This document shows, one piece after another, positions 1 to 743 of a DNA stretch of 11,975 nucleotides (the first letter of the stretch is position 1; each line of letters opens with the position of its first letter). A model generated the notes under the pieces. That model had not been told where the DNA came from and did no database searches. It was given only the letters and a program-made list of their open reading frames with translations. The stretch is taken from the IMG/VR virus record IMGVR_UViG_2675903425_000020, one strand, 5' to 3'. This stretch comes from a virus. Lineage: Duplodnaviria > Heunggongvirae > Uroviricota > Caudoviricetes. The translations under genes and the position numbers were made by a program.

Positions 1-1
1 C

Positions 2-469
2 AGACGCTCTCTAGGGCATTGGGAGGGCGATTTAGTCTCAGGTACAAAAAACTCTCATATAGCCACACTTGTAGACCGAAAATCACGTTATACGATCATC
101 CTCAGACTCAGGGGCAAAGATTCTGTCTCAGTAAATCAGGCTCTTACCGACAAATTCCTGAGTTTACCGTCAGAACTCAGAAAATCACTGACATGGGACA
201 GAGGAATGGAACTGGCCAGACATCTAGAATTTACTGTCAGCACCGGCGTTAAAGTTTACTTCTGCGATCCTCAGAGTCCTTGGCAGCGGGGAACAAATGA
301 GAACACAAATGGGCTAATTCGGCAGTACTTTCCTAAAAAGACATGTCTTGCCCAATATACTCAACATGAAGATCTGGTTGCTGCTCAGCTAAACAACAGA
401 CCGAGAAAGACACTGAAGTTCAAAACACCGAAAGAGATAATTGAAAGGGGTGTTGCATTGACAGATTGA
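2..469 (+). CDS. insI: IS30 family DDE transposase, C-terminal part (5' end lies left of the window)
   Basis: Frame 2 is open from position 2: ...GHWEGDLVSGTKNSHIATLVDRKSRYTIILRLRGKDSVSVNQALTDKFLSLPSELRKSLTWDRGMELARHLEFTVSTGVKVYFCDPQSPWQRGTNENTNGLIRQYFPKKTCLAQYTQHEDLVAAQLNNRPRKTLKFKTPKEIIERGVALTD*. This is the recognisable C-terminus of IS30 transposase. The ORF-track call 206..469 is the same frame starting at an internal Met; the track ORF 19..252 is out of frame. Confidence 0.85.
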   Translation, partial: RRSLGHWEGDLVSGTKNSHIATLVDRKSRYTIILRLRGKDSVSVNQALTDKFLSLPSELRKSLTWDRGMELARHLEFTVSTGVKVYFCDPQSPWQRGTNENTNGLIRQYFPKKTCLAQYTQHEDLVAAQLNNRPRKTLKFKTPKEIIERGVALTD

Positions 470-476
470 ATCTACA
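451..476. repeat. IS30 right terminal inverted repeat (about 26 bp)
   Basis: Sequence TGTTGCATTGACAGATTGAATCTACA at the element boundary; reverse complement begins TGTAGATTCAAT, typical of IS30 ends. The left copy lies outside the window, so pairing cannot be checked here. Confidence 0.6.
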
Positions 477-743
477 AGTGCCTTTTTCTGTCAGCGGTTC
501 TCCTTTCCAGCCAATGAGAACCGTCAGGCGCGCGCCCCGTGGCGGTAGCTGCAACTGACCATCTGCATCATCCAGCGTGATGGTGAGCTGGTCCGCCTCA
601 AATCCCCGGTTGTCGGTCAGTGACAGGCTCATCAGGCGCTCTGCCACGCCTGACAGCGTTTTACCCTCCGCGAGAATATCAAAATCCGGCACTTTCACGT
701 GGTCTGTGCCCTGACTGAGCAATTGCATGGTGGTGTCGGTCAT
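477..743 (-). pseudogene. Phage tail protein D (P2 gpD / Phage_GPD family), N-terminal 89 codons only; truncated by the IS30 insertion
   Basis: Minus-strand ATG at 741-743 preceded by a GGGAGG Shine-Dalgarno (plus-strand 747-757 region). Translation MTDTTMQLLSQGTDHVKVPDFDILAEGKTLSGVAERLMSLSLTDNRGFEADQLTITLDDADGQLQLPPRGARLTVLIGWKGEP contains the SLSLTDNRGFEADQL block characteristic of gpD-family N-termini. The frame then runs straight into IS30 sequence at 476 and stops at 420 inside the IS. Confidence 0.7.

Follow-up and report, generated by a model that had tools for sequence, protein, structure and literature searches.

IS30 within gene D of the P88-like prophage Sp13: an already annotated insertion at a probable natural IS30 hot spot

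The window, that is, the whole 11,975-nucleotide stretch of DNA analysed here, begins inside a copy of the insertion sequence IS30, passes at the right-hand end of that element into the first codons of a phage tail gene (gene D) found on the opposite strand, and then runs on through tail genes of the same prophage as far as a scaffold gap (Table 1). Over positions 1-7613 the window differs by a single mismatch from prophage Sp13 of Escherichia coli O157:H7 Sakai, a ‘P2-like phage’ adjoining tRNA-Leu leuZ in that strain and one for which we take CP-933T of strain EDL933 to be an equivalent name. The Sakai record carries at these positions the labels ‘prophage Sp13, P2-like’, ‘IS30 partial’, insI1, and, for a 107-codon reading frame, ‘phage tail protein’ (ECs_2646). 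The RefSeq label for the stub of D is ‘phage late control D family protein, incomplete’. An IS30 insertion in D of Sp13, a well-studied and defective prophage, is thus already known, i.e., annotated in public genomes, and as such is ordinary.

Table 1. Features of the window and the basis on which each was assigned (positions are those of the window)
Feature	Position	Strand	Basis or remark
Right-hand 476 bp of IS30	1..476	+	Identical to ‘IS30 partial’/insI1 of Sakai Sp13; window begins within the element
C-terminal 155 codons plus stop of IS30 transposase (rve/DDE core)	2..469	+	Pfam, NCBIfam, BLASTP
IS30 right terminal inverted repeat (IRR), 26 bp	451..476	+	Exact string match to IRR of full-length IS30 copies
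AG, right-hand copy of 2-bp target-site duplication	477..478		Junction compared with empty site
First 89 codons of gene D (P2 gpD / baseplate-hub family) of P88-like prophage	477..743	-	Translation, P88 gp51, PHROG 52
Chimeric 107-codon ORF (D codons 1-89 plus 18 IS30-end codons), stop at 420-422	420..743	-	Same as Sakai ECs_2646
Divergent intergenic region between D (minus) and tail sheath gene FI (plus)	744..900		157 bp; native to P88-like phages
Rest of Sp13 contig	901..7613		FI, FII, E/E', frameshifted T, U, serine O-acetyltransferase (plus); 3' part of tfa (minus)
Run of 50 N, scaffold gap	7614..7663		Sequence to the right is not contiguous Sp13

The IRR reads GTGTTGCATTGACAGATTGAATCTACA, and its last base is window position 476. 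Identification of the element as IS30, as an earlier note on this DNA had proposed from the letters alone, is supported by that repeat, by identity to Sakai insI1, and by the transposase. That is, the fragment of transposase within the window is identical at 155 of 156 positions, with a one-residue gap, to residues 228-383 of a 383-residue protein (BLASTP), and matches both the NCBIfam family NF033563, ‘IS30 family transposase’ (E 5.9e-53), and Pfam rve (E 1.2e-14). The full 383-residue transposase matches NF033563 at E 3e-82 and Pfam HTH_38 along with rve. Full copies found at the same site in D are 1,221 bp long in strains 493/89, H10407, O114:H49 and MEI003, and left (IRL) and right repeats are complementary at 23 of 26 positions in the copies compared (Sakai and 493/89). 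What is seen, therefore, are the features of IS30-family membership: a length of about 1.2 kb with imperfect inverted repeats of 26 bp, a DDE transposase with an N-terminal helix-turn-helix, and a 2-bp target duplication. The transposase gene is oriented opposite to D.

The copy belonging to the window's lineage is nonetheless degraded. Relative to 493/89 the window displays an in-frame 3-bp deletion at 369/370, removing Leu351 of the transposase. The Sakai Sp13 copy is 1,172 bp long and has its IRL intact, at position 13305 of the extracted Sakai locus (L001), but a 46-bp deletion between short direct GTTTTTGAA-like repeats, at about 13360 of L001 and so outside of the window, removes the transposase ATG. 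In addition to these 46 and 3 bp lost from the IS, 6 bp more are missing from the adjoining remnant of D.

On the other side of position 476, translation of the minus strand from 743 to 477 gives 89 codons, MTDTTMQLL...GEPLTEKGT, such that the earlier note's placement of the start of D, of its length, and of the end of the inverted repeat is exact. Its assignment of the target to the gpD family of tail genes is borne out as well by database matches, the 89-residue fragment being 87/89 identical (98%) to the N-terminus of phage P88 gp51, ‘gene D protein’, and matching PHROG 52, ‘tail protein’, at E 2.7e-31 (E 2.8e-166 for the full-length D protein). The fragment alone finds no match in Pfam or NCBIfam, which is because the Phage_GPD match (PF05954, E 3.9e-17) of the full-length allele spans residues 91-346. 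That uninterrupted allele, from O55:H7 DEC5B, encodes 366 residues with 49% identity to P2 gpD (E 1e-121), i.e., it is joined to the P2 gpD / Phage_GPD family both by profile and by similarity to P2 gpD itself.

As the Phage_GPD domain (residues 91-346) is all but absent from the stub, presumably no functional D protein can be made from its 89 residues. In phage P2, gpD is required for tail assembly, as known from amber-mutant genetics. The P2 record has D contributing to tail formation and places D in the F operon, other members of which are labelled ‘essential tail protein’. The earlier note had taken the insertion to be the direct inactivation of an essential tail gene, and for near-complete relatives of Sp13, e.g., that of 493/89, the claim would seem to stand; apart from D, the prophages of 493/89, H10407 and MEI003 have a complete appearance. 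For Sp13 itself the claim is moot since that prophage, though P2-like, is without most morphogenetic genes (PMC2669165). In passing, a further protein family, PHROG 4456 (‘unknown function’, a profile of 126 positions), matches D in its N-terminal part only (E 1.1e-47) and may perhaps have been built from truncated D fragments, such as stubs cut by IS30.

Among 5,426 complete E. coli genomes 246 have the IS30/D junction, with 100% identity in 60 of the 60 matches listed, and window 477-1000 is 95-99% identical to 13 phage records, including those of P88 and Xuanwuvirus P884B11. Positions 1-743 can with considerable confidence be described as the right junction of an IS30 in D of a P88-like (Xuanwuvirus, Peduoviridae) prophage at leuZ of O157:H7, namely Sp13. 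The window stops inside of IS30, and what is found to its left is read from relatives with 7.6 kb of identical sequence rather than from the same assembly.

Such relatives allow the site to be viewed both with and without the element. D alleles that are free of IS30, i.e., those of O55:H7 DEC5B and of P88, read ...CAACAATGTAAGTGCCTTTTT..., with the empty site given also as ...AATGTAAGTGCC.... Among IS-bearing alleles the left junction is ...AATGTAAG followed by TGTAGA, and the right junction is TCTACA followed by AGTGCC. AG thus is found at both junctions of IS-bearing alleles and singly in IS-free alleles. In 493/89, for example, a complete 1,221-bp IS30 lies between ...CAACAATGTAAG/TGTAGATTC... 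on the left and ...GAATCTACA/AGTGCCTTTTT... on the right (slashes marking the junctions). Both junctions, with the AG duplication, are found in 493/89, H10407, O114:H49, FMU073332, SMN013SH2 and MEI003, and in 493/89, H10407, O114:H49, FMU073332 and MEI003 both halves of D were seen to flank the IS30, which is the arrangement left by simple insertion. Beyond the IS30 of 493/89 come the C-terminal part of D and then a YecA-family gene, ogr and hok. A D gene interrupted in this way is found also, and likewise at leuZ, in enterotoxigenic (ETEC) H10407 and in O114:H49 90-9280. DEC5B had been considered as the empty-site ancestor at leuZ but was rejected as such, as its IS-free prophage sits at ihfA; it serves here as an IS-free allele only.

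Comparison of these alleles shows the original event to have been a simple IS30 transposition with duplication of 2 bp, AG, the duplication itself having been anticipated by the earlier note. IS30 entered D between codons 89 and 90 by ordinary transposition, duplicating AG, and what it left of D in the window is a stub of 89 residues that continues into 18 codons supplied by the IS.

The slot between D and ogr is variable among P88-like prophages. It holds the YecA-family gene in O157 (1875-3014 of the 493/89 locus, L003), a GmrSD-type restriction endonuclease in MEI003 (L011 2423-4006) and a 1,068-bp hypothetical gene in DEC5B (L002 4145-5212), and is empty in H10407 and P88. A hok/gef toxin gene lies just past ogr in P88-like prophages.

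The search with the left junction unexpectedly matched non-O157 strains as well. H10407 and O114:H49 have their prophages at leuZ, with flanks which are about 2.5-9% diverged from those of the O157 prophage, while in FMU073332 and SMN013SH2 the insertion is found in P88-like prophages at a different locus, beside flk/yfcJ. MEI003, which was found using a synthetic query for the junction in inverse orientation, carries a 1,221-bp IS30 at the same AG but turned the other way, its prophage being located at ihfA; both ends of the element were verified as pure IRR and IRL at the same AG. Compared over 1.2 kb of flank, IS-bearing alleles are separated from one another by 18-37 substitutions, with IS-free alleles interspersed among them, the flank of SMN013SH2 being closest to that of P88 (12 substitutions).

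IS30 is known to prefer nearly palindromic hot spots, into which it inserts with a 2-bp stagger (PMC9333248). From 30 IS30 copies in species-representative genomes a weight matrix was built, using 25 unique half-sites, and the empirical half-site consensus is TATTAAAAAAGGC-N-[2-bp duplication]. The 30-bp site in D, TCATCAACAATGTAAGTGCCTTTTTCTGTC, has one strong half, GCCTTTTT, in exact register with that consensus and a weaker half, CATCAACAATG, on the side that reads CATCAA...G, which is present in other natural sites too. By this matrix the D site ranks 7th of 17,971 positions in the 18-kb DEC5B locus (L002) and 4th of 11,709 in P88 (z = 3.4), values to be read with the crudeness of the matrix in mind, as its 25 half-sites may in part be related and a few other prophage positions are equal in score without known insertions. 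As a control, the best position of the matrix within lambda 33200-33400 is 33291; the published left part of the lambda LHS hot spot ends at 33290 (PMC9333248).

With its high matrix score, the recovery of lambda LHS by that same matrix, and use of the site in both orientations, codon 89/90 of D in P88-like prophages probably is a natural IS30 hot spot, one that would have been hit independently at least three times (leuZ, flk/yfcJ and ihfA) and in either orientation. The recurrence is seen as a pattern across genomes, with the mechanism behind that pattern being presumptive. The papers searched contain no account of an IS30 hot spot at this site in D, and it is only these independent IS30 hits at the same two-base spot, in several unrelated E. 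coli strains, that are new here.

Might there have been instead just one ancient IS30 insertion, subsequently spread by descent, by helper-complemented movement of prophages, or by homologous recombination, with the site not a hot spot at all? Site and orientation are indeed common to all carriers but one, H10407 and O114:H49 are at leuZ just as is O157, and two SNPs plus a 9-bp indel set three IS-bearing alleles apart from both of the IS-free alleles examined. Recombination of an IS-bearing D segment between prophages, furthermore, could mimic some of the recurrences in the same orientation. A single insertion would not, however, readily account for MEI003, with its inverted element, pure IRR and IRL ends, and identical AG duplication, nor for carriers at three chromosomal attachment loci, nor for IS-bearing flanks that are no closer to each other than they are to IS-free alleles. 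The site, moreover, fits the IS30 target pattern, and hot-spot use by IS30 is documented (PMC9333248). A single event thus would seem unlikely, and repeated insertion at a hot spot is the reading preferred here.

An IS3-family element (IS1203/IS629 type) is found inside of the D-borne IS30 in SMN013SH2 (L010 6418-7631) and in PV15-279 (L043 7082-8295), and in PV15-279, along with this IS3-family insertion, the D stub, FI, FII and E are gone, as is part of T.

The rest of D, according to the earlier note, had to be found on the far side of the IS. That is so in rare relatives, i.e., those of the 493/89 type, but in the Sakai-type lineage only some 75 bp of D (about 25 codons) remain to the left of IS30, on which side Sakai has the hypothetical gene ECs_2648. 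Colinearity places the difference precisely. Sakai L001 12376-13230 corresponds to 493/89 L003 1-855, and L001 from 13230 onward corresponds to L003 from 4178 onward. What is gone is 3.3 kb, with codons of D from about 117 through 366 and, beyond them, the YecA-family gene, ogr and hok. The junction of this deletion, which has at most a few bases of microhomology and lies about 75 bp outside of the IS end, is present in 250 complete genomes, with a long left part of D retained next to IS30 in only 13. In this lineage an illegitimate deletion of 3.3 kb, later than the IS30 insertion and ending about 75 bp left of the IS, has removed the remainder of D together with its neighbours; with its endpoint at that distance from the IS end it is not an IS-promoted adjacent deletion. 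Both this deletion and the 46-bp loss from IS30 are shown in relatives identical to the window, and presumably they apply to the window's own source too. Insertion first and deletion later comes close to the case which the earlier note had itself set against a simple insertion, that is, a lack of gpD continuation beyond the IS.

It is improbable, and more so than the single insertion discussed above, that the window's source strain was instead of the 493/89 type, with a full IS30 and the complete C-terminal part of D on its far side. Such strains do exist, and the left side is not readable from the window. The window has, however, the Sakai-type markers which are missing from 493/89, i.e., the 3-bp deletion at 370, another of 3 bp at 3871, and a 1-bp deletion at 5127, and over 7,613 bp it differs from Sakai by a single mismatch. 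Genomes with a left junction of Sakai type, moreover, number 250, versus 246 for the right junction. A Sakai-type source with the deletion thus remains the reading adopted here. Two of these markers lie in the tape-measure gene T (window 3132-5971), in which the 1-bp deletion at 5127 results in two overlapping ORFs and the 3-bp deletion at 3871 is in frame relative to the intact gene of 493/89; T in the window matches the Sakai pseudogene ECs_2640. Strain 493/89 is labelled O157:H7 in its record and is, we presume, sorbitol-fermenting O157. The D site could serve as a lineage marker, with 493/89 having the undeleted form and typical O157:H7 the deleted one.

It had also been suggested that IS30 may have a bearing on an unusual gene order, a suggestion that fails. 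In P2 the F operon, FI-FII-E-E'-T-U-D, is all on one strand, while in P88-like phages the block FI-FII-E-E'-T-U (window 744-6472) is turned around with respect to D and the genes for tail fibre and baseplate. D diverges from FI in P88, which is described as an inducible and viable phage (PMC5285337), and likewise in 13 phage records of the Xuanwuvirus type. The D/FI segment is carried by about 1,370 E. coli genomes, with 80% or greater coverage in 1,359 complete ones, most of them without IS30 there. As the order is found in IS-free phages and prophages, comparison across genomes shows it to be native to P88-like phages rather than made by IS30. Of inverted repeats around the FI-U block only short pairs at chance level were found, and no long ones. 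Given conservation of the inversion across P88-like phages, D must, it would seem, have a promoter of its own in the 157 bp between D and FI (744-900). A search of those 157 bp for a TGT-N12-ACA (Ogr-type) motif found none.

Less probable still is a rearrangement by IS30, driven by dimers or by inverted repeats, as the source of the D/FI inversion and of the missing remainder of D alike. Deletions and inversions are known to arise from IS30 intermediates (PMC9333248), and D both adjoins the IS and is mostly missing in Sakai. The same D/FI order is seen, however, without any IS30, the deletion ends some 75 bp outside of an intact IRL although an adjacent deletion would start at the IS end, and neither a second IS30 end nor an IR-IR junction was seen. 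A native order, a simple insertion and a separate later deletion together are the account that is favoured here.

That assembly created the IS30/D junction as a chimeric join at a repeat, a possibility for which the earlier note had urged a check, is scarcely credible, as despite a scaffolded draft with several runs of N, a start inside of a multicopy IS, and a right part that is a non-contiguous join, the identical junction is found in 246 complete genomes and relatives display the matching left junction along with the 2-bp duplication.

The right part of the window is a different matter. In addition to the gap listed in Table 1 there are runs of N at 11186-11217 and 11487-11536, and single Ns at 10830 and 10848, which mark the window as a scaffolded draft. 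Window 7664-11185 matches, at 99.9%, the tfa/stf/lom region of a lambdoid prophage of EDL933, and 7664-11975 as a whole is the tfa, side tail fibre, lom and J region of a lambdoid O157 prophage, with the lambdoid tfa joined out of register, within tfa, to that of Sp13. No complete E. coli genome was found that covers 80% or more of the window or that has the tfa/tfa adjacency. This odd right part was joined on by scaffolding, across runs of N, and its adjacency to Sp13 is not biological. A 973-residue ORF at 8112-11033, considered as a replication protein of Sp13, was rejected as such, since it is the lambdoid side tail fibre found beyond the scaffold gap. Within Sp13 proper, a serine O-acetyltransferase-like cargo gene lies between U and tfa (6596-7201, plus strand).

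Should the hot spot be real, then IS30 would provide a recurrent and sequence-directed route by which E. coli ‘grounds’ P88-like phages, with tail assembly knocked out while the rest of the prophage stays in place. The D site, in addition, would be a convenient natural substrate for studies of IS30 target choice and of prophage domestication. There is corrective value as well, in that P88-like phages have this gene order natively, a separate deletion accounts for what D lacks, and the right part of the window is an artefact of scaffolding.

Among the closest known systems is Sp13 of Sakai, which is no different from the window over 1-7613 beyond the one mismatch, though 7664-11975 is lambdoid prophage rather than Sp13. 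Gene D of P2 shares with the full-length allele the Phage_GPD family at 49% identity, but follows U on the same strand, whereas in the window the FI-U block is inverted relative to D. Phage P88 (Xuanwuvirus P88) is 98.5% identical in DNA over window 477-1000 and has D divergent from FI with hok beyond D. It differs in having an intact, 366-residue D with no IS30, and in that the position of the Sp13 acetyltransferase is taken by a DNA invertase and an invertible tail-fibre segment. The lambda LHS hot spot (33244-33498) is, like the D site, a phage-borne IS30 target that scores high in the same empirical matrix, with use of the D site, unlike that of LHS, being read from natural genomes rather than from transposition assays. 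The IS30 of E. coli K-12, lastly, is identical or almost identical to the elements seen here, full copies in relatives differing from one another at 0-5 positions. Unlike the K-12 element, the copy of the window's lineage has lost 46 bp, including the transposase start, plus Leu351. Agreement otherwise extends to a length of 1,221 bp, 26-bp inverted repeats, a 383-residue transposase with HTH and DDE domains, a 2-bp duplication, and a near-palindromic target with A-rich and GGC portions (PMC9333248).
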